A model generated the notes under the pieces. It was not told where the DNA came from. It saw only the letters and a list, made by a program, of their open reading frames with translations, and did not search any database. Shown in pieces: positions 11,816 through 21,986 of a DNA stretch of 64,000 bases (position 1 is the first letter of the stretch; every line of letters begins with the position of its first letter). The stretch lies in the sequence record OP292222.1. The stretch is one strand, 5' to 3'. The position numbers were made by a program, and so were the translations under genes. The DNA is from Escherichia phage Esco_phi_B-01.

Positions 11816-12139
11816 ATGGAACTTCCTATTAAAGCGGTCGGAGAATATGTTATTCTCGTTTCCGAACCAAAACAAGCTGGCGATGAAGAAACTACTGCAT
11901 CTGGTATCGTTATTGGCAAACTTCATCAAGGCGAAATCCCTGAACTTTGTGAAATTTATTCTGTGGGACCTGATGTCCCTGAAGGTTTTTGTGAAGTAGG
12001 CGATTTGACTCCACTTCCTGTTGGTAAGATTGCTAACGTGCCACATCCTTTAGTTGCATTGGGTATTAAACAGCCTAAAGAAATTAAACAGAAATTCGTT
12101 ACCTGTCACTATAAAGCTATTCCGTGTCTTTATAAGTGA
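11816..12139 (+). CDS. 31: gp31 head-assembly co-chaperonin (GroES analogue)
   Basis: 107 aa; strong match to T4 gp31 ([27 protein letters not shown]). Confidence 0.9.
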
Positions 12140-12147
12140 TATAAATA
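12140..12147 (+). promoter_or_regulatory. late promoter motif TATAAATA downstream of gene 31
   Basis: Exact TATAAATA immediately after the gene 31 stop, upstream of rIII. Confidence 0.4.
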
Positions 12148-12285
12148 ATAATATGGATTGGCTGCCGGACTAGTTAGTTAACCGGAGAATCCTAAGCGGT
12201 GGACTACAACTGAGAGACTTGCCGAAAGGAAGTGAAATTCAGAAGAACGTGTCCACCAATCTTTATCTCGAATCGAGAATTTAAA

Positions 12286-12534
12286 ATGAACAAACATCTG
12301 AATCACGCTCTTGAACTGCAACGCAACGCTTGGAACAACGGTCACGAAAACTACGGCGCATCTATTGATGTTGAAGCCGAAGCACTGGAAATCCTGCGTT
12401 ATTTCAAACATCTTAATCCTGCTCAGGCTACTCTGGCTGCTGAACTGGAAGCAAAAGATGAACTGAAATATGCTAAGCCTTTGGCTTCAGCAGCTCGTAA
12501 AGCAGTACGTCATTTTATTATTACCCTGAAGTAA
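12286..12534 (+). CDS. rIII: rIII lysis-inhibition accessory protein
   Basis: 82 aa from ATG 12286 (MNKH.NHALELQRNAWNNGHENYG); matches T4 RIII; track start 12232 rejected. Confidence 0.85.
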   Translation: MNKHLNHALELQRNAWNNGHENYGASIDVEAEALEILRYFKHLNPAQATLAAELEAKDELKYAKPLASAARKAVRHFIITLK

Positions 12535-12782
12535 AATCGAGGAGCCGTCGAACTGTCTGATTAATGATTTGCGAATCATTATAGTTTTAAGACCCCAGCA
12601 GTTTTACGGTGTACCTCTTGAATGTATTTTATAGCGGCAAGTGCATGCTACCCCGAGGTGATGGCCAATCGGGAGTACGCCTCAAGGCCTATATATCCAT
12701 CAGTATATATCTTATCCTCGAGAAATCGAACCCGGAACCTTTAAGCTAACGGTGTGCAACAGATAAGAGCTATGATGACGAG

Positions 12783-12812
12783 GTTTACGGTTATCCTGTC
12801 GTTAAATATCTA
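12783..12812 (+). promoter_or_regulatory. possible early-type promoter for the small basic ORF
   Basis: GTTTAC (12783-12788), 18-bp spacer, TATCTA; weaker -10. Confidence 0.3.
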
Positions 12813-12886
12813 AAACCTATGTTCCCCTTGAGGGCTTGCGCAGGCAACGCCAATAAGTCCTGCATCCTAATTTAAGAGATTTAAAA

Positions 12887-13048
12887 ATGGCTAAGAAAGA
12901 AGTTAAAGTAGTTGACGGAACCTCTAAACGCGCTGGTTACAAGCGTGCGTCTAACAAGCGTATCAATCAGGTAGTTGATAAGCTTCAAGCTCGTGCTCGT
13001 GCAGTATTGCGTGCAGATGCTGCTTGCTTCGGTAAAGTTATTGCATAA
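12887..13048 (+). CDS. small basic protein (53 aa), hypothetical
   Basis: Below track threshold; Lys/Arg-rich; ends 6 nt before a strong terminator hairpin. Confidence 0.4.
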   Translation: MAKKEVKVVDGTSKRAGYKRASNKRINQVVDKLQARARAVLRADAACFGKVIA

Positions 13049-13053
13049 GTTAT

Positions 13054-13080
13054 GGGACTCTTCGGAGTCCCATTTTTGTT
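13054..13080 (+). terminator. intrinsic terminator
   Basis: GGGACTC-TTCG-GAGTCCC hairpin followed by ATTTTTGTTT. Confidence 0.8.
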
Positions 13081-13099
13081 TCTAAATCTTTAAAAAAGG

Positions 13100-13128
13100 G
13101 TATACATCTCCGGTAGGCATGATACTAT
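13100..13128 (+). promoter_or_regulatory. early-type promoter, cassette copy 1
   Basis: GTATAC (13100-13105), 17-bp spacer, TACTAT (13123-13128). Confidence 0.5.
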
Positions 13129-13172
13129 AGACATGTACCAAATAATACGAAAACAAACTGGAGAATAAAATG
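13123..13172 (+). repeat. 50-bp promoter-leader cassette, copy 1
   Basis: 48/50 identical to 13529-13578; spans -10, leader, SD GGAGA and ATG. Confidence 0.9.
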
Positions 13173-13502
13173 AAAACTGTAAACCTGAATGCATCTGTTA
13201 AAGCTAAATGTTTCAACGGTGAATATCAAGAAACCATGTGGGTCCTGACTGCAGTTGAAGGTGATATCATCGAAGTTGAAACAACTGAAGGTATGGGTAC
13301 TGATTTCACATTTACCATCGAGCTTCACAACTTCTTTACAGGTTGGATTTATGAACTGAAAACTGTAATTACTGGTCGTATCGAAGAAAACAAAATTGGT
13401 GAATTCTATTACGTTAATGCCCGTACACGTGCTGAACGTCTGATTGCTCAGATGAAAAAAGTTGGTAAACTTGATATGAAAAATTGGAATGTTGTGAAAT
13501 AA
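13170..13502 (+). CDS. hypothetical early protein (110 aa)
   Basis: ATG preceded by SD GGAGA within a conserved 50-bp promoter-leader cassette. Confidence 0.6.
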   Translation: MKTVNLNASVKAKCFNGEYQETMWVLTAVEGDIIEVETTEGMGTDFTFTIELHNFFTGWIYELKTVITGRIEENKIGEFYYVNARTRAERLIAQMKKVGKLDMKNWNVVK

Positions 13503-13505
13503 ATG

Positions 13506-13534
13506 TTTTACTTTGGTACAGGTTGTGTTATTAT
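13506..13534 (+). promoter_or_regulatory. early-type promoter, cassette copy 2
   Basis: TTTTAC (13506-13511), 17-bp spacer, TATTAT (13529-13534). Confidence 0.5.
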
Positions 13535-13578
13535 AGACCTGTACCAAATAATACGAAAACAAACTGGAGAATAAAATG
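13529..13578 (+). repeat. 50-bp promoter-leader cassette, copy 2
   Basis: 48/50 identical to 13123-13172. Confidence 0.9.
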
Positions 13579-13941
13579 AACTACATCAACTTCGAACGTA
13601 AATATGTTTCTAACGGTATCGCTGGTTCTTCTGAAGTTATTTGCCTGTGGAAACACAACAACGGCACAGTGTGCGAAATCGAACAGTGCATGACTCCTAA
13701 CTACGTTTATATGCGCTTTGAAAATGGTATCACGGTTTCAATCACTATGGAAGGTTCTACTTTTAAAATCGCTTTAGATGATGATTTCCGTCAACGTGAT
13801 TTAGGTACCCATCCTTGCTGGAACGGTGATAATCGTAAGCTTCTGGTTAAAACCTGGATTCGTCACATCCTGAGCAACCGTGCTAAACCTGAACACCTGG
13901 AAGCAATCTTTGATGTAGTTCTGAATGAATTTGATATCTAA
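13576..13941 (+). CDS. hypothetical early protein (121 aa)
   Basis: Second copy of the same promoter-leader cassette directly upstream. Confidence 0.6.
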   Translation: MNYINFERKYVSNGIAGSSEVICLWKHNNGTVCEIEQCMTPNYVYMRFENGITVSITMEGSTFKIALDDDFRQRDLGTHPCWNGDNRKLLVKTWIRHILSNRAKPEHLEAIFDVVLNEFDI

Positions 13942-13951
13942 TCTTAAAAAT

Positions 13952-13970
13952 GGAGGCTTCGGCCTCCTTT
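13952..13970 (+). terminator. intrinsic terminator or RNA hairpin
   Basis: GGAGGC-TTCG-GCCTCC hairpin followed by TTT. Confidence 0.6.
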
Positions 13971-13982
13971 GAGGAAAATATT

Positions 13983-14270
13983 ATGTTTATGACCACTTAT
14001 TTCGATACTCGTAAAAATTTCTGTGAAGTTGTTTTCTCTAAGGCAGGTAAAGATGTTCCTGCTGACAAACAGCCTACTCGTGAATCCATTAAGGCCTATG
14101 CTGATGTGGTTTGTCCAGTAGAATTCCGTACAGTCAATGGTCGTGACACCCTAGCAATCACTAAGCTCAACCATGATATTAACATAGACCCTAGCGCTGC
14201 CCGCGAAGTCAATACTTCTGACATCTATGGCGGTAATGTTAAATCACATGGATTTCAGATGAGGTTCTAA
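13983..14270 (+). CDS. hypothetical protein (95 aa)
   Basis: ATG 13983 with SD GAGG; track start 13950 lies inside a terminator hairpin. Confidence 0.5.
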   Translation: MFMTTYFDTRKNFCEVVFSKAGKDVPADKQPTRESIKAYADVVCPVEFRTVNGRDTLAITKLNHDINIDPSAAREVNTSDIYGGNVKSHGFQMRF

Positions 14271-14464
14271 TGCAACTATTCTTATCACAAACTGTTCAGT
14301 TAAAAGGTGTAGGTATTCCTGGTATGATTTCAAAGGTTTTACCTGCTTTTAAATTGGGTAATGCTACTATTAAAGAAGCCTACACTGTCCTATGGGTCGA
14401 TGGCACTGAAGACGTTCGCATGGGTGGTGAGTTGTCTGTAATCAAATGTTTGAAGCGAGGATAA
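14270..14464 (+). CDS. hypothetical protein (64 aa)
   Basis: ORF coupled to upstream stop; SD GAGG. Confidence 0.45.
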   Translation: MQLFLSQTVQLKGVGIPGMISKVLPAFKLGNATIKEAYTVLWVDGTEDVRMGGELSVIKCLKRG

Positions 14465-14465
14465 T

Positions 14466-14681
14466 ATGGTCAAGAAACTGATTCAGAAATTGTTAGGTAC
14501 GGAAATGGTTGAAGTGACTTATCGTGTGACTGATGTTTCTCCTCATACAGCGGACCATTTAGAACCTTATATCATGACAATTAAAATGCCTAAACATGAC
14601 GGCGGTTTATCCATTGAAGACCGACTGCCGGGTTATGGTTATTGGGCTGATGTCGAAATTATAAGTGTCAAAGATGTCTGA
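14466..14681 (+). CDS. hypothetical protein (71 aa)
   Basis: ORF with SD GAGG upstream. Confidence 0.45.
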   Translation: MVKKLIQKLLGTEMVEVTYRVTDVSPHTADHLEPYIMTIKMPKHDGGLSIEDRLPGYGYWADVEIISVKDV

Positions 14682-15132
14682 GTTAGAAATTAGAAGTAAC
14701 TTTCCGTGGCCATCATGCGCATTAAGTAACTTTGCTAAATGGCCTTTCGTTATGGATGGTATCCAATTTGGCGGACTCGAAGGATTCCTCCAAGGGTGTA
14801 AGGTGAAAAATGTTGAACAACAAAGACGTATATTTAGGATGACCGGGTTAGACGCTCAAAAAGCTGGACGAGCTTATGCTAGAGCTCAGGACCGTGGCAC
14901 GTTATTCTGGCTTGGAACCCCGTTTTCAAGATATTCCGAAGCATGGAAAGAGCTTTACGAAAGTGCGTATTTTGAAGCAGCGCTCCAGAACAAAGGATTC
15001 CGAGATGCATTACAAGCCACTAAAGGTAAGGTTTTAAAGCATTCAATGGCAAGCCACCTCAAAGAATGTGATACAATACTAACTGAAAAAGAGTTTATCG
15101 ACATCCTAAACAAATTGAGAGATTTATTATGA
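14674..15132 (+). CDS. NADAR/YbiA-like (DUF1768) domain protein
   Basis: 152 aa from first ATG (track start 14665 is GTG); motifs LSNFAKWPF.MDG and LEGFLQGCK align with E. coli YbiA FSNFAAWPI.VDG and SEHYFQAQK. Confidence 0.6.
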   Translation: MSELEIRSNFPWPSCALSNFAKWPFVMDGIQFGGLEGFLQGCKVKNVEQQRRIFRMTGLDAQKAGRAYARAQDRGTLFWLGTPFSRYSEAWKELYESAYFEAALQNKGFRDALQATKGKVLKHSMASHLKECDTILTEKEFIDILNKLRDLL

Positions 15133-15767
15133 AACCAGTTATCTTAACAGATATCGATGGAGTATGTTTAAGTTGGCAGTCCGGCTTGCCTTATTTCGCA
15201 CAGAAATATAATTTGCCTTTAGAACATATTTTGAATATGATTCAGGACGAACGTTTCTTATCTCCAGGCGAACTGTTTAATTGTGACGACGAATTAGGCG
15301 CACGTTTAATCGAGAAATATAACCAGTCAGATTTTATTCGTTATCTGTCCCCTTACATGGACGCATTAAAACACATCAACAAGCTCAAAAAAGACTTCGA
15401 TTTTGTAGCCGTGACTGCGCTAGGCGACTCAATTGATGCTCTGCTGAATAGACAATTCAATTTGAATGCTTTGTTCCCTGGCGCATTCAAGGAGATTCTG
15501 ATGTGTGGTCATTCAGAATCAAAAGAAGACCTGTTCATAAGAGCTAAAAATACATACGGTAAACGCATTAAGTTTTATGTTGACGATTTGGCTCACCACT
15601 GTGATGCCGCATCTAATATTCTCATGGATATCCAAGTTTATTGGTTAGCCCGTGGTGAGCGCGACTTTAAACCTAATTTAGCCGTAAAGGTTAATTCATG
15701 GGACGATATTGCAGCAATCGAATCCCTTCGTAATAATGCAGCCGTTGAATGGATTGCACGAGGTTAA
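15129..15767 (+). CDS. HAD-family 5'(3')-deoxyribonucleotidase-like protein (T4 30.2-like)
   Basis: 212 aa; N-terminal HAD motif I LTDIDGV; position matches T4 30.2. Confidence 0.6.
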   Translation: MKPVILTDIDGVCLSWQSGLPYFAQKYNLPLEHILNMIQDERFLSPGELFNCDDELGARLIEKYNQSDFIRYLSPYMDALKHINKLKKDFDFVAVTALGDSIDALLNRQFNLNALFPGAFKEILMCGHSESKEDLFIRAKNTYGKRIKFYVDDLAHHCDAASNILMDIQVYWLARGERDFKPNLAVKVNSWDDIAAIESLRNNAAVEWIARG

Positions 15768-15768
15768 T

Positions 15769-16032
15769 ATGTTTGTTGTTCATACTATTACTGATGGAAT
15801 CCCTAAATCCCATGATTATGGAAACGTTAGACAATTCCTTCGATTGAACCCTGTATATTTCCAAGCCAAAGATGAAGACATCTTTATCCAATGTGTTCGG
15901 CGTGGATTTATGTATGTTACTGAATATGATATTAAAGATAAGCGTATTATATCGTATCACAAAACTTTAAATGAGCTTTTAGATGAAGTAGCTTATAATA
16001 GAAGTACACAAACTGTAAGGACGGTAAAATGA
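15769..16032 (+). CDS. hypothetical protein (87 aa)
   Basis: ATG 15769 with SD GAGG; precedes ligase. Confidence 0.5.
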   Translation: MFVVHTITDGIPKSHDYGNVRQFLRLNPVYFQAKDEDIFIQCVRRGFMYVTEYDIKDKRIISYHKTLNELLDEVAYNRSTQTVRTVK

Positions 16033-17552
16033 TTTTAGATATTTTAAACGAAATTGCTTCTATTGATTCTACTAAAGCTAAAGAAGCTATTATTGCTCGT
16101 GAAAAGGATAACGAGCTTCTGAAACGTGTATATCGTATGGCTTATACCCGTCGTTTGAACTATGGTATTAAAAAGTGGCCGGAACCTGGATTTACGTCTC
16201 AATCCTTTGGTATGATTACACTTGAAGACCTTCTTGATTTCGCTGAGTTCACATTAGCCACCCGTAAGATTACAGGTAATGCAGCTATTGAAGAACTTGC
16301 CCAAATTATTGCTGATGCCAAGGGTCCTGACGCTGAGGTATTACGTCGCGTAATGATGCGTGACCTTGAATGTGGTGCATCGATTTCTATTGCTAACAAG
16401 GTTTGGAAAGGTTTAATCCCTGAACAACCTCAAATGTTGGCTAGTTCTTATGATGAAGATTTGATTAAGAAAAATATTAAATGGCCTGCGTTCGCCCAAT
16501 TAAAAGCTGACGGCGCTCGTTGTTTTGCTGAAGTTCGTAACGATGGGGTAACATTCCTTACTCGCGGTGGTAATGAATACCAAGGGCTTAATCTTTTGGC
16601 GGCTGAATTAATGGCCATGACCGAAGAAGCTCGACAGCGCCATCCTAATGGTGTTATGATTGACGGTGAATTAGTTTACCATACTCCTAAAGTGGAGCCT
16701 AAAGCGTCTAATGATTTGTTTAGTATGTTTGATGAGGAACTTCCTGAATTAAGTAAAGCCAAGGAATTCCAAACTGTCGCCGATCGTTCTACTTCAAACG
16801 GGTTGGCTAACAAGGCTCTTCAAGGAACTATTACTCCAACCGAAGCCGCAGGTATGGTATTACAGGCATGGGATTATGTCCCATTGGATGTCGTATATTC
16901 CGAAGGTAAAATTAAAGGCGATAAGTATGATGTACGCTTTGCAGCCTTAGAACTTATGGTTGCTCATAATGTCGTATTGCATGGTACAACGCGTGTTGAA
17001 GCTATCGAAAACCAATGGGTTAATAATCTTGACGAAGCTAAAGTCGTTTATAAGAAATATGTCGACCAAGGCCTGGAAGGTATTATCCTTAAGAACATGG
17101 ACTCCTACTGGGAAAACCGCCGTTCTAAGAATCTTATCAAGTTCAAAGAAGTAATCGATATCGCTTTAGAAGTGGTAGGTTATTATGAACACTCGAAGGA
17201 CCCAAACAAACTTGGTGGTGTCGAGCTAGTATCACGTTGTCGTAGAATTACAAGTGACTGTGGCTCAGGCTTTAAAGATACCACCCATAAGAAAGATAAA
17301 TCAGGTAAAAAAGTATTGATTCCATTGGAAGACCGTCCTGATTTAGACCGTGAACTTCTTATGAAACAAGCTCGTGAAGGTAAGTTGATTGGACGTATTG
17401 CTGACTGTGAATGTAATGGTTGGGTTCATTCCAAAGGACGTACTGATACTGTAGGTATTTTCCTTCCAATTATTAAAGGTTGGCGTTTCGATAAAACAGA
17501 AGCTGATACATTTGAAGATGTATTTGGTGATTGGTCTCAAACTGGACTATAA
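16029..17552 (+). CDS. 30: ATP-dependent DNA ligase
   Basis: 507 aa; adenylation motif KADGAR; near-collinear with T4 gp30. Confidence 0.92.
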   Translation: MILDILNEIASIDSTKAKEAIIAREKDNELLKRVYRMAYTRRLNYGIKKWPEPGFTSQSFGMITLEDLLDFAEFTLATRKITGNAAIEELAQIIADAKGPDAEVLRRVMMRDLECGASISIANKVWKGLIPEQPQMLASSYDEDLIKKNIKWPAFAQLKADGARCFAEVRNDGVTFLTRGGNEYQGLNLLAAELMAMTEEARQRHPNGVMIDGELVYHTPKVEPKASNDLFSMFDEELPELSKAKEFQTVADRSTSNGLANKALQGTITPTEAAGMVLQAWDYVPLDVVYSEGKIKGDKYDVRFAALELMVAHNVVLHGTTRVEAIENQWVNNLDEAKVVYKKYVDQGLEGIILKNMDSYWENRRSKNLIKFKEVIDIALEVVGYYEHSKDPNKLGGVELVSRCRRITSDCGSGFKDTTHKKDKSGKKVLIPLEDRPDLDRELLMKQAREGKLIGRIADCECNGWVHSKGRTDTVGIFLPIIKGWRFDKTEADTFEDVFGDWSQTGL

Positions 17553-17553
17553 T

Positions 17554-17724
17554 ATGAAAGCTTATTTAGAAACAATTGTTGTAACAAATACAAATACCAC
17601 CGCGGCCTCTCAAATCATCCTAGAGTTTGAGGATGAAATAGCTTTTGCCGATTTTAAAGACGTGTTTGATGGCTATGAAAAAGGCCCGACATTCGAAGTA
17701 TATCGTACGTTGCTACCACTTTAA
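17554..17724 (+). CDS. hypothetical small protein (56 aa)
   Basis: ATG 1 nt after ligase stop; followed by terminator hairpin. Confidence 0.4.
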   Translation: MKAYLETIVVTNTNTTAASQIILEFEDEIAFADFKDVFDGYEKGPTFEVYRTLLPL

Positions 17725-17741
17725 GGCCTTCGGGCCTTTTA
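17724..17741 (+). terminator. intrinsic terminator after the ligase operon
   Basis: AGGCC-TTCG-GGCCT hairpin followed by TTTT. Confidence 0.65.
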
Positions 17742-17774
17742 TGGCATAAATACGGTTATTAAAGAGGAATTATT

Positions 17775-19859
17775 ATGACCGAACAATTAAATGAAGTGTT
17801 TGAGTCTGAAGGCACCCTGCCTACTGTAAACTTAAACCCGAAACTTAAAGTACCACAGATTTGGAAGATTGGTGATGTCGAATCCCAATTAGTTGCTCGT
17901 ATGGTATCTTATGCCTCTGAAGGCGATGCTATTAAACAGGTTAAATTAGGTGATAAATACGCCCACGTTATCCTTATGAGCCTTTCAGCTAAAGGTTCTC
18001 CAGCCGAACTTAAAGGTGGCTTAGGCCCTACTCCTATTGATGCTATTAATACCATTTTCGACGTAGTATTCGAACAAGTTAAAAAGCTTCGTATGGATGC
18101 TGTGATGTTCCGTTTTCCAACCAAGAAAATGAAAGGACAAGGACCTATCGTCCAACGGATTATCCAACGTTTGGTAACTCAAAAAACAGGTGGACGCTTC
18201 AAAGTAGTTCCGGCTATGTACCAATTTACCGGTAAACATACTTATATCCTAGTAGTTCGTAAACAAGCTGATATTGAAGATATCAAAGGTATGCCAGGAA
18301 TTAATGCCGAATTATATACTAAGGTAGATTCTGATGTTGGTGAAGTTTATATTTCTAAAAAAGAAGGTGTGCAGGTTACTAAAGAAACTGCTATTGCCGG
18401 CAGTATTGCTAAAGTTGAAGAACGTCGCACTGATAAAATGGTTATAACCAAGACTAAGATTTCTCGACGCGCTATTGCAGCAAGTCAGTCTTTAGAATCT
18501 TATCGTAATGAAAGTGAGCTGTTTAAGAAATATGAAGCTACTGCAGCAGATTTTAATAAACCGGCAACAGCTCCATTAATTCCTGAAGCACAGGAAATGG
18601 TCACCAATAACAATTCTCCTGCGGCTAAAAATAAAGTTGCTAATATAGTAGCTGAAGGCACAGCCGAAGAGTTGCATTATGAATATAAAATGTTTCCTCT
18701 TCACGGTATAGGTGAAATCCAAGAGAAAATTAAAGAGAGAATCCTTACGGCCATCAAAAACGAACCTTTGACATCTGTTAAAGCTCTAGAAAAATATGCC
18801 TCTGTTATTAATACCGTTTTCGAAGAATACAAAGGTGAATGGCTGGCTATACATAACAAAACTCGTAAAGGTCAACCTGATGACGTCTGGAATGAATTAA
18901 CCGAGTCCAAGTGGAAAGCAGCCAAGACCAAGTTCATTAAAAAACGTGTGTATAGTTTTGCTGGTGTAGGTGGTGGTATTATGGTCGATATTACTATCGC
19001 TCGTGATGGTTCTAAATACACCCCATCACAAAAGCGCGGCATCAGAGAATACTGCGGCTCAGGTTATACCGACATCAATAATCTTCTTTTAGGACGTTAT
19101 AATCCTCAGAACTATGATGTAATGAATGAAAGGTCTATTGAATCTGCTGTTAATAATCTTGATTCAGCTTTTGAAAATGGTGACCGTATACCAGAAGGCA
19201 TTACAGTTTATCGTGCTCAAAGTATGACTGCTCCTATATACGAAGCACTAGTTAAAAATAAGGTATTTTATTTTAGAAATTTTGTATCTACTTCACTGAC
19301 TCCTATCATTTTTGGACGTTTTGGTGTTACACATGCCGGGGTCGGTCTTTTAGAACCGGAAGTTCGCAACGAATTGACAGTCGATAAAAATGAAGAAGGA
19401 ATAACCATTAATCCTAATGAAATAAGAGCGTATAAAGAAAACCCTGATTACGTTAAAGTTCAAATAGGATGGGCAATTGATGGAGCCCATAAAGTTAATG
19501 TTGTATATCCAGGAAGTCTTGGAATAGCAACAGAAGCTGAAGTTATTCTACCACGCGGATTGATGGTCAAAGTTAATAAAATAACTGATGCCTCTAATAA
19601 TGACGGAACGACATCTAGTAATACAAAACTCGTTCAAGCCGAAGTTATGACGACGGATGAGCTTCAAGAATCTGTAGTGTATGATGGTGACGTACTAATG
19701 GAAACTGGTGAGTTGGTCGTATACCAAGATGACTTCGATACTTCCGAAAGCCCTGTATCTTTTGATTCATTTGTTAAATCTACGCGGTTTGACGTACTGC
19801 CTCTTTTGGCTTCATGCATAGACCTCTATGACATACCAGAAAAATTCATCCAAGGGTAA
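17775..19859 (+). CDS. alt: Alt, head-packaged ADP-ribosyltransferase
   Basis: 694 aa; collinear with T4 Alt including ART motifs (TVYRAQ, FVSTSL, EAEVILPRGL) and C-terminus CID..P.KF.QG. Confidence 0.88.
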   Translation: MTEQLNEVFESEGTLPTVNLNPKLKVPQIWKIGDVESQLVARMVSYASEGDAIKQVKLGDKYAHVILMSLSAKGSPAELKGGLGPTPIDAINTIFDVVFEQVKKLRMDAVMFRFPTKKMKGQGPIVQRIIQRLVTQKTGGRFKVVPAMYQFTGKHTYILVVRKQADIEDIKGMPGINAELYTKVDSDVGEVYISKKEGVQVTKETAIAGSIAKVEERRTDKMVITKTKISRRAIAASQSLESYRNESELFKKYEATAADFNKPATAPLIPEAQEMVTNNNSPAAKNKVANIVAEGTAEELHYEYKMFPLHGIGEIQEKIKERILTAIKNEPLTSVKALEKYASVINTVFEEYKGEWLAIHNKTRKGQPDDVWNELTESKWKAAKTKFIKKRVYSFAGVGGGIMVDITIARDGSKYTPSQKRGIREYCGSGYTDINNLLLGRYNPQNYDVMNERSIESAVNNLDSAFENGDRIPEGITVYRAQSMTAPIYEALVKNKVFYFRNFVSTSLTPIIFGRFGVTHAGVGLLEPEVRNELTVDKNEEGITINPNEIRAYKENPDYVKVQIGWAIDGAHKVNVVYPGSLGIATEAEVILPRGLMVKVNKITDASNNDGTTSSNTKLVQAEVMTTDELQESVVYDGDVLMETGELVVYQDDFDTSESPVSFDSFVKSTRFDVLPLLASCIDLYDIPEKFIQG

Positions 19860-19862
19860 ATA

Positions 19863-21986
19863 ATGGAAAATTTAAACGAAGTTTTTGATAGTGATTCCGC
19901 TAAAAACTATCCAGTAACAAATCTTAAGCCGGGCTCCGGTATCCCACAGATTTTCTCTATTAAAGCACCAGGTAACGATAACCTGGTTGCTCGTATGGTA
20001 TCTTATGCGTCTCAAGGAGACGCTATTAAAATGGTTAAGCCTGGCGACAAATACGTTCATGTTATTTTAATGAGTTTGTCGAGCAAGGGTGCTCCGGCTG
20101 AACTCAAAGGTGGCCTTGGTTCCGACCCACTTGGTACATTGAATACTATTTTCGATACGATATATGAACAAGTAAATAAACTTAAAATGGATGCGGTTTT
20201 GTTCCGTTTCCCTACCAAGAAAATGAAAGGTAAGGGCCCTACTGTTCAGCGTGTATTAGCTCGTTTGGCGATGGCACGTACCGGTGGTAAGTTTAAAGTT
20301 GTCGATAGCATGTTCCAGTTTAGTGGTAAACATACATACGTTCTTTTAGCACGTCGTGGCACTAATATCGAAGATATCAAGGGTATGCCTGAAATTGATG
20401 CAGACCTTTATACCAAGGTTGAGTCTAAAGTCGGGGAAGTTTATGTTTCTAAGAAAACTGGCCAGGCCGTAAGTAAGGTCGAAGCCGTAGCAGCATCTAT
20501 TGCGCAGGTTGAAGAGAAACGTACCGATAAGGCTGTTATTTCTCGTACTAAGATTTCCCGTCGTATGGCTGCAGCAGCGCAGTATTCTACTGCCGAACCT
20601 GAAACTTTATCACCTAAAGAATTGCAGGTTTATAACGAGTTTGAAGCTTCTGTCCCTGTTCACTCGGCCGAAGGCCCTGAGAACGAAGGTATTGAGCAGA
20701 TTAGCCAGAACTTTAAAAAAGGTGCTATTACTAAAATGCGTCAGGCCTCTCAGTTTAAATCTAAGAGTGAGGACCTTGCCAACTTTAGATACACCATTGC
20801 TCTCACGCACGCTTTAATGACTGATAGTAAATTTAAACTAAATTATGCTAATAGAGATAAACAAGGGTTTGAAATTTACTCTAATAATATGGCATTTTTT
20901 AATACAGAAGTCGATAGACTTTTAAGCGGCCTTTCTCAAATCAATACTACCAATAGTCTGGATATTATTAAGAGAATTGTTAATAACCTGAGTGCCCGTT
21001 TTCAGGGGTCTCCTTCAGAGAAAGCATCCCGAATTGCTTTCGCTATGGAAGCCGTTTATAAACTGATTAACGATTCTATTAGCGATGCATATGCTTATTC
21101 AGGCGAGCTCATTAAACCTAAGGGCTTGACCAAAGACGAAAGTAATGCCATTATTGAATATTGTGCGGCTGAATATGCTCCTATGAACTTATTCCTTTTA
21201 GGTAAACCTGAATCCGAAAACAATACAACAGCTATTAAATTGATTAAGGATTTAGACTCAGCATTTACCAAGGGTATTAAACTTCCTAAGGGTACTATTT
21301 TGTATCGTGGTCAGGATTTACCATACAAAATTCTGCGCCATAATATTGATAACAAAACATTTTACTTTAAGAACTTTGTGTCCGCTTCATTAAAGCCTAA
21401 TATCTTTGGTGAATTTGGTAAAAATTATATGGCCCTCGACAACCAAGCAGTTTTTGTTGGTGATGAAGGTTCTTTATCCTCCGCCGATGAGTTGTTTAAA
21501 TTGGCCAGTGGTAGTTCATCTGACGTAGGTGAAGTTGATGATGAAGAGGTAGAATGGGAAGAAGACGAGTTTGGTAATCCAATTGCACCTGAAGGCCCTG
21601 CAGACAGGATTGCTGAAATTGGTATGGTTATTAGAGGTGCTGAAGCAGTTAAAGTTATCGCTCCTGGTGACCTTACAGAATATGCCGAAGAAGCGGAAAT
21701 TATCCTTCCACGCGGATTATTGTTGAAGGTTGATAAAGTAGCGGCTTTTGCTATGAATGATAGAGTATCTCACAAATACCTTATGGAAGCTACAGTGACA
21801 TCTCCTTCAGAACTCAGTGAGTCCGTTTACGATGGCGACCATCTGATGGAAACCGGTGAAGTTAAATTGATGAATGGGTTTAAAGAATTCCTAGTTTCAG
21901 AATCTGTTTCAGAAAGTAACGAGGCTATGGAAATCCTTGCTGCATCTTTGGACATCTCTTCTTTACCAAATAAATTCAAAATGTAG
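19863..21986 (+). CDS. Alt-like ADP-ribosyltransferase paralog
   Basis: 707 aa; N-terminal ~230 aa closely similar to the adjacent alt product; retains YRGQ, FVSASL, EAEIILPRGL; divergent middle and C-terminus. Confidence 0.8.
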   Translation: MENLNEVFDSDSAKNYPVTNLKPGSGIPQIFSIKAPGNDNLVARMVSYASQGDAIKMVKPGDKYVHVILMSLSSKGAPAELKGGLGSDPLGTLNTIFDTIYEQVNKLKMDAVLFRFPTKKMKGKGPTVQRVLARLAMARTGGKFKVVDSMFQFSGKHTYVLLARRGTNIEDIKGMPEIDADLYTKVESKVGEVYVSKKTGQAVSKVEAVAASIAQVEEKRTDKAVISRTKISRRMAAAAQYSTAEPETLSPKELQVYNEFEASVPVHSAEGPENEGIEQISQNFKKGAITKMRQASQFKSKSEDLANFRYTIALTHALMTDSKFKLNYANRDKQGFEIYSNNMAFFNTEVDRLLSGLSQINTTNSLDIIKRIVNNLSARFQGSPSEKASRIAFAMEAVYKLINDSISDAYAYSGELIKPKGLTKDESNAIIEYCAAEYAPMNLFLLGKPESENNTTAIKLIKDLDSAFTKGIKLPKGTILYRGQDLPYKILRHNIDNKTFYFKNFVSASLKPNIFGEFGKNYMALDNQAVFVGDEGSLSSADELFKLASGSSSDVGEVDDEEVEWEEDEFGNPIAPEGPADRIAEIGMVIRGAEAVKVIAPGDLTEYAEEAEIILPRGLLLKVDKVAAFAMNDRVSHKYLMEATVTSPSELSESVYDGDHLMETGEVKLMNGFKEFLVSESVSESNEAMEILAASLDISSLPNKFKM

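Follow-up and report, generated by a model that had tools for sequence, protein, structure and literature searches.

The gene 30.3 ortholog of a JS98-like Dhakavirus encodes a phage-type NADAR protein predicted to counter DarTG1

The stretch of Escherichia phage DNA analyzed here (64,000 nucleotides, hereafter the window) carries at positions 14674-15132, on the plus strand, a gene that in all likelihood is the adfN of a JS98-like Dhakavirus, encoding a core-only NADAR enzyme predicted to act as a guanine-ADP-ribose DNA glycohydrolase and to counter the DarTG1 defence. The gene starts with ATG and its product, a stand-alone phage-type NADAR protein of 152 residues, is the ortholog of T4 gp30.3. 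In the proposed mechanism, infection of a host with the DarTG1 toxin-antitoxin defence would lead DarT1 to place ADP-ribose on the guanines of the phage DNA, by which replication would be blocked. AdfN would then hydrolyze the bond between ADP-ribose and guanine via Glu36, Lys43 and His123, yielding normal DNA and allowing replication. In this way the phage would bring its own orphan antitoxin, one that acts without binding to the toxin. The T4 protein, a close ortholog, has been characterized by experiment, so that the finding itself is already known, and our analysis brings no new biology beyond the work on T4. Its value lies in annotation. JS98 and most related records label the ortholog "hypothetical protein", a label that can be replaced by adfN, and the name carries the prediction that this phage resists DarTG1.

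The orthology is apparent from the sequence of the product and from the order of the genes around it. T4 gp30.3 and the window protein share 85% identity, with 152 of 152 residues aligned and no gaps. The substitutions relative to T4 AdfN fall at 23 of the 152 positions, none of them in an invariant column of the family. Identity to JS98 gp30.3 is 99%. A megablast search with positions 13900-16100 matched Escherichia phage JS98 (Dhakavirus, Tevenvirinae) over the full length at 98.4% identity, along with a further 431 records, mainly from coliphages. The window phage is a JS98-like Dhakavirus, not a Tequatrovirus. In the annotations of both JS98 and T4 the genes run in the order 30.6, 30.5, 30.4, 30.3, 30.2, 30.1, 30 (ligase), alt.1 and alt, and this order identifies 14674-15132 and 15129-15767 as the orthologs of T4 genes 30.3 and 30.2. 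All genes of the window for which coordinates are given here lie on the plus strand. The gene 30.4 ortholog (14466-14681; phrog_2042, E = 6.3e-35, and JS98 annotation) runs into adfN, its stop codon (TGA, 14679-14681) falling 8 nt within the gene. A GTG at 14665, in frame with adfN, would lengthen the product to 155 residues. Genes 30.1 (DUF3045) and 30 (ATP-dependent DNA ligase) occupy 15769-17552 (PF11243, E = 6.7e-20; PF01068, E = 1.3e-23; JS98 annotation), with the ligase itself at 16029-17552, downstream of gene 30.2, and an Alt-type ADP-ribosyltransferase is encoded at 17775-19859 (PF03496, E = 1.5e-35). A preliminary description of this DNA, made from the letters and their open reading frames, had correctly located both reading frames, 14674-15132 and 15129-15767, upstream of the ligase.

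The preliminary description had placed these genes in an early cluster. A sigma-70 consensus scan of positions 12000-18000 gave 7 promoter-like sites, where shuffled sequence would lead one to expect 16, a count that does not bear on this label. Of terminators, the same interval has a single convincing example, a strong hairpin resembling an intrinsic terminator at 13052-13073 (plus strand), just after the 30.9 ortholog, with a GC-rich stem of 9 bp and a T-run.

The 152-residue protein had been described as NADAR/YbiA-like on the strength of three sequence motifs. The first, SNFA.WP...DG, is indeed shared with Escherichia coli YbiA (LSNFAKWPFVMDG here, FSNFAAWPIKVDG in YbiA). The second is present as EGFLQGCK, opposite EHYFQAQK in YbiA, but the common pattern is E.F.Q..K, with the phenylalanine one position earlier than in the E..FQ..K that had been given. 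The third is also recognizable, LQATKGKVLKH standing opposite LLATAPAKLVE, but its last residue is His123 and not the glutamate that had been claimed. A histidine in place of the YbiA-family glutamate and the DarG1 aspartate, in the last strand, is the published hallmark of the gp30.3 subfamily of phage NADARs (PMC11125620, PMC12945103) and no defect.

Searches with the single sequence placed the protein firmly within one family. PF08010 (Phage_30_3) matched it at E = 2.4e-65 with 219 bits (cut-off, 36) over profile positions 2-138 of 138, and no second family was found by Pfam hmmscan at E <= 0.1. A direct match to PF08719, which had been proposed as a check, was absent at the same threshold, because Pfam models the phage branch separately as PF08010. 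We dropped this miss as a refutation of the NADAR call, since profile comparison, family members and fold recover the link. In a phmmer search of the protein alone against PDB sequences, the sole match was PsbR at E = 1.4, a chance value. With a profile of 40 family members, hmmsearch against the PDB gave YbiA (2b3w) as the only match, at E = 0.004, aligning LsnFakhpFvldg...EGFlqslK with FSNFAAWPIKVDG...EHYFQAQK. Comparison of a 51-member family alignment with YbiA by hhalign gave a probability of 91.7% and E = 7.7e-7 over 90 columns. PF08719 was matched directly by 9 of the 51 family members, the best at E = 1.5e-7, and in the reverse search YbiA matched PF08010 at E = 0.004. At the level of sequence comparison, the similarity of the protein to NADAR/YbiA is far above chance, as judged from the PF08010 score (219 bits) and the hhalign E-value (7.7e-7).

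We then considered the predicted structure. An AlphaFold2 (AF2) model of the protein, built from a family alignment without the T4 sequence, was obtained with a pLDDT of 93.2 and a pTM of 0.87. It displays the YbiA-like alpha-helical core with small flanking beta-sheets by which we recognized the NADAR fold. The top three matches of the model in the PDB, as ranked by the program Foldseek, were all NADARs, with probabilities of 1.00, 1.00 and 0.94: YbiA (2b3w), the NADAR of Phytophthora nicotianae bound to ADP-ribose (8bau) and the DarT1-associated NADAR of Geobacter lovleyi (8bat). YbiA, the best of these, was matched with E = 1e-4, a TM-score of 0.67 and 18% identity in the structural alignment, and the fourth match reached only E = 2.5. 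The comparison of a predicted structure with YbiA, the other computational check that had been suggested, was favorable. Taken together, profile, family members, fold and conserved residues support the assignment of the reading frame to the NADARs, and the link is solid at the level of profile and predicted fold.

The residues expected to form the active site are conserved. Glu36 (codon at 14779-14781), the predicted catalytic glutamate, is equivalent to E36 of T4 AdfN, E43 of PnNADAR and E48 of YbiA, and Lys43 (14800-14802), which would contact ADP-ribose, is equivalent to K43, K50 and K55, respectively; both codons were checked. His123 (15040-15042) is specific to phage NADARs and takes the place of YbiA E125 and of the DarG1 aspartate. 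All three residues are invariant in both family alignments (n = 40 and n = 51). The alignments pair E36 and K43 with YbiA E48 and K55, and the placement of H123 opposite YbiA E125 comes from the hhalign register, in which K122 stands opposite YbiA V124. Absence of the predicted catalytic residues had been named as an observation that would speak against a NADAR, and E36, K43 and H123 are all present. The C-terminal alpha-helix (residues 138-152, encoded at 15085-15129; helical from 138 to 151 in the AF2 model) is intact, and the frame stays open up to residue 152, as it does in T4, with no frameshift. This part of the protein is lost in the RB69 allele, in which a one-base insertion at nt 411 makes the product 15 residues short, with loss of the helix and reduced activity (PMC11825919).

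Truncated or frame-switched gp30.3 products also occur among the close relatives (P0004, P0006, P0012, P0013, P0015 and P0021). P0015 begins in the adfN frame and finishes in the frame of 30.3', and P0021, from phage vB_Eco_NR1, does the opposite. P0013, from phage UGJNEcP4, is only 91 residues long, and the IME08 annotation gives 30.3 in two pieces. Natural frameshifts that inactivate adfN, like that of RB69, may be common, and gene-calling or assembly artefacts could explain some of these cases. Within adfN itself, in another frame, an open reading frame of 53 residues (14876-15037, plus strand) matches DUF2883, the family of T4 gp30.3', at E = 9.7e-17. It spans positions 23-75 of the 75 in the profile, the N-terminal third found in T4 being missing. 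The conservation of DUF2883 may be no more than the constraint on adfN seen in the other frame.

The function of the T4 ortholog has been established by experiment. In a study by Johannesman et al. (Nat Commun 2025, PMC11825919), the resistance of T-even phages against DarTG1 was mapped to gene 30.3, which then received the name adfN, for anti-DarT factor NADAR. In their work, purified T4 AdfN stripped ADP-ribose from DNA modified by DarT1, and the rescue of phage growth by T4 AdfN was impaired by E36A, by K43A and by a C-terminal truncation like that of RB69. Deletion of adfN made both T4-GT7 and wild-type T4 sensitive to DarTG1. AdfN did not bind DarT1, and it did not counter the thymidine-specific DarTG2 (PMC11825919). 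The in vitro activity of T4 gp30.3 was confirmed independently (Toxins 2024, PMC11125620; PMC12945103), and a 2026 study found that it removes guanosine-linked, not cytidine-linked, ADP-ribose (PMC12945103). A 2025 preprint on a transposon screen reports that 30.3 insertions were lost specifically on DarTG1 hosts (bioRxiv 10.1101/2025.11.20.689424). In uninfected cells, DarT1 toxicity is not relieved by T4 AdfN (PMC11825919, PMC11125620), and phages outside the T-even group are only partially rescued by it (PMC11825919). Thus, T4 AdfN requires a further T-even factor in vivo (PMC11825919).

For the window gene, sequence comparison and modeling establish orthology, a predicted NADAR fold and synteny, with the catalytic residues conserved and the C-terminal helix intact. 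Because of the 85% identity, the conserved catalytic residues, the full length and the conserved synteny, it very probably has the function of T4 AdfN, and we infer its activity and its anti-DarTG1 role from the T4 work. The earlier suggestion that the protein might remove ADP-ribose from guanine in DNA and oppose DarT-type toxins has in this sense been borne out by experiment on the 85%-identical T4 gp30.3/AdfN (PMC11825919, PMC11125620), and by extension probably holds here.

The gene that follows, the ortholog of T4 gene 30.2 (15129-15767, plus strand), encodes a protein of 212 residues that resembles phosphatases of the HAD superfamily, and its start codon overlaps the adfN stop codon (ATGA). 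The protein matches phrog_420 at E = 2.4e-70. T4 gp30.2 (278 residues) is 75% identical to it over the first 191 residues of the T4 protein, and the window protein is without the ~85-residue C-terminal tail of T4 gp30.2 (L001:6475-7311). Members of the gp30.2 family come in short (~200-220 residues) and long (~260-340 residues) forms, the difference lying in a weakly conserved C-terminal tail that follows the HAD domain. Inspection of the family alignment revealed all four HAD catalytic motifs (DxD, S/T, K and DD), with D8 and D10 of the DxD motif, K132 and D152/D153 invariant and T96 conserved in at least 90% of members. The AF2 model (pLDDT 95) consists of a Rossmann-like HAD core with a cap domain. 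The model had 142 matches in the PDB at E <= 0.001, and the best 50 of the 142 were all HAD-superfamily hydrolases. No Pfam family scored above threshold, the sole match being NT5C (PF06941), which at 12.9 bits (E = 0.1) falls short of its cut-off of 24.8. The gp30.2 family profile found PDB 2jao at E = 0.1, NCBIfam gave nothing for gp30.2, and a literature search for "gp30.2" found no papers. The preliminary description had called this neighbor a HAD nucleotidase. Motifs and predicted fold confirm that gp30.2 is HAD-superfamily phosphatase-like. The more specific half of the label finds only the NT5C match below its cut-off, and since deoxyribonucleotidases are among the structural matches of gp30.2 without being the best of them, "nucleotidase" stays a guess.

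The proximity of the two genes raises the question of whether they work together. adfN and 30.2 may be read as a two-enzyme counter-defence module, in which gp30.2 would be the T-even factor of AdfN or would process the released ADP-ribose or ribose phosphate; as a variant, gp30.2 could stabilize or localize AdfN. If gp30.2 were that factor, 30.3-30.2 would be a counter-defence module of two genes. The ATGA overlap of start and stop suggests translational coupling, the two genes adjoin in all close T-even relatives, and T4 AdfN is reported to need a further T-even factor (PMC11825919), all of which is consistent with such a module. However, a 30.2 homolog lies within 5 kb at only 20 of 80 gp30.3-family loci (IMG/VR), and a 30.3 homolog is found no more than 5 kb upstream at only 34 of the 78 loci surveyed for gp30.2, while the downstream flank contains the ligase at 67 of the 78 (loci L083-L149), where it starts 14 nt to ~1.5 kb after 30.2. 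In several T4-like genomes, such as the contig common to L075 and L106, 30.3 and 30.2 are ~55 kb apart. A weaker argument is that the text of the transposon screen names 30.3 alone as lost on DarTG1 hosts (bioRxiv 10.1101/2025.11.20.689424). By these co-occurrence counts, gp30.2 goes with the ligase, not the NADAR, and the adjacency of adfN and 30.2 is a feature of T-evens and their near relatives only. We rejected gp30.2 as an obligate partner of AdfN on account of the weak co-occurrence, and we consider the module improbable. Most likely, gp30.2 is functionally independent of AdfN. Its tight linkage to the ligase hints at a role of the HAD protein related to ligase, nucleotides or DNA ends.

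The preliminary description had also thought of a function in reversing ADP-ribosylation, in a phage with ADP-ribosyltransferases of its own. On this reading the enzyme would undo or edit the modification that the phage transferases Alt, ModA or ModB make on host proteins or RNA. Two Alt-type genes are found 2.6-7 kb downstream of adfN (17775-19859 and 19863-21986), and in many T4-like phages the NADAR gene occurs together with ligase and alt. Against this, the published activity of NADARs is on guanine-linked ADP-ribose in DNA or RNA, and for some of them, the T4 enzyme not included, on cytidine, and it does not extend to protein arginine (PMC12945103). Moreover, in several T4-like genomes ~55 kb separate the NADAR from the block of 30.2, ligase and alt (as on the contig that carries both L075 and L106), and most distant NADAR loci are without an alt gene within 5 kb. 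Nothing ties AdfN to the phage Alt, and we regard this role as very improbable. Equally improbable is a metabolic instead of a counter-defence role, in which the protein would be a housekeeping N-glycosidase of the YbiA type and remove reactive intermediates of the riboflavin pathway. YbiA is its best structural match, and its only NCBIfam match is a faint one to TIGR02464 (riboflavin-intermediate N-glycosidase), whose cut-off of 73.7 bits is not approached by the 14 bits obtained (E = 0.041). However, His123 replaces the YbiA-family glutamate in every family member, which places the protein in a separate phage branch and not with the YbiA type, the T4 ortholog shows an anti-DarTG1 phenotype (PMC11825919; bioRxiv 10.1101/2025.11.20.689424), and the published phylogeny sets the gp30.3 cluster nearest to DarG1, not to YbiA (PMC11825919).

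The Alt-type genes have a history of their own. The two ADP-ribosyltransferase genes at 17775-19859 and 19863-21986 (plus strand) stand in tandem, encoding 694 and 707 residues, as do altA/altB in JS98. The first Alt is only 70% identical to JS98 altA but 96-98% identical to the alt of IME341-type relatives (L004-L006), whereas the 30.x genes flanking it resemble those of JS98 at 98-100%, a pattern suggesting mosaicism by recombination. NADARs of the gp30.3 type, at ~40% identity, were also seen on very large viral contigs of 250-424 kb (L023, L026, L032, L051, L055, L062, L073 and L081), where neither 30.2 nor ligase nor alt lies within 5 kb of them. Thus, the phage NADAR branch reaches beyond classical T4-like genomes to contigs of jumbo-phage size.

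Finally, we compared the two window proteins with known systems. The protein that we read as AdfN is like T4 gp30.3/AdfN in its length, its flanking genes, E36, K43, H123 and the C-terminal helix. It differs from it by the 23 substitutions and in the genus of the phage, T4 being a Tequatrovirus and the window phage a Dhakavirus, and the activity is predicted here from that of the T4 protein. With DarG1 (BC4488 family; G. lovleyi NADAR, 8bat), whose published reaction is the hydrolysis of guanine-ADP-ribose, the phage protein has the predicted fold in common, and DarG1 is reported to be the nearest non-phage relative of the gp30.3 cluster (PMC11825919). However, DarG1 is extended at its N terminus by a segment with a basic groove, which is absent from the phage protein (219 versus 152 residues), and it has an aspartate at the position of His123. 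Its gene lies beside that of DarT1, whereas the phage adfN is an orphan, and DarG1 rescues DarT1 toxicity in uninfected cells, whereas T4 AdfN does not (PMC11825919). E. coli YbiA (PF08719, 2b3w) shares the SNFA.WP...DG and E...Q..K motifs with the phage protein. It is a housekeeping N-glycosidase of riboflavin intermediates with Glu125 where the phage protein has His123, and, like T4 gp30.3, it does not rescue DarT1 toxicity in cells (PMC11125620). For gp30.2, the cytosolic and mitochondrial 5'(3')-deoxyribonucleotidases of the NT5C family (PF06941; 2jao, 4mum) have the HAD fold, an alpha-helical cap and the DxD nucleophile motif in common with the window protein, but as structural matches they are outranked by haloacid dehalogenases, YfnB and HDHD4.
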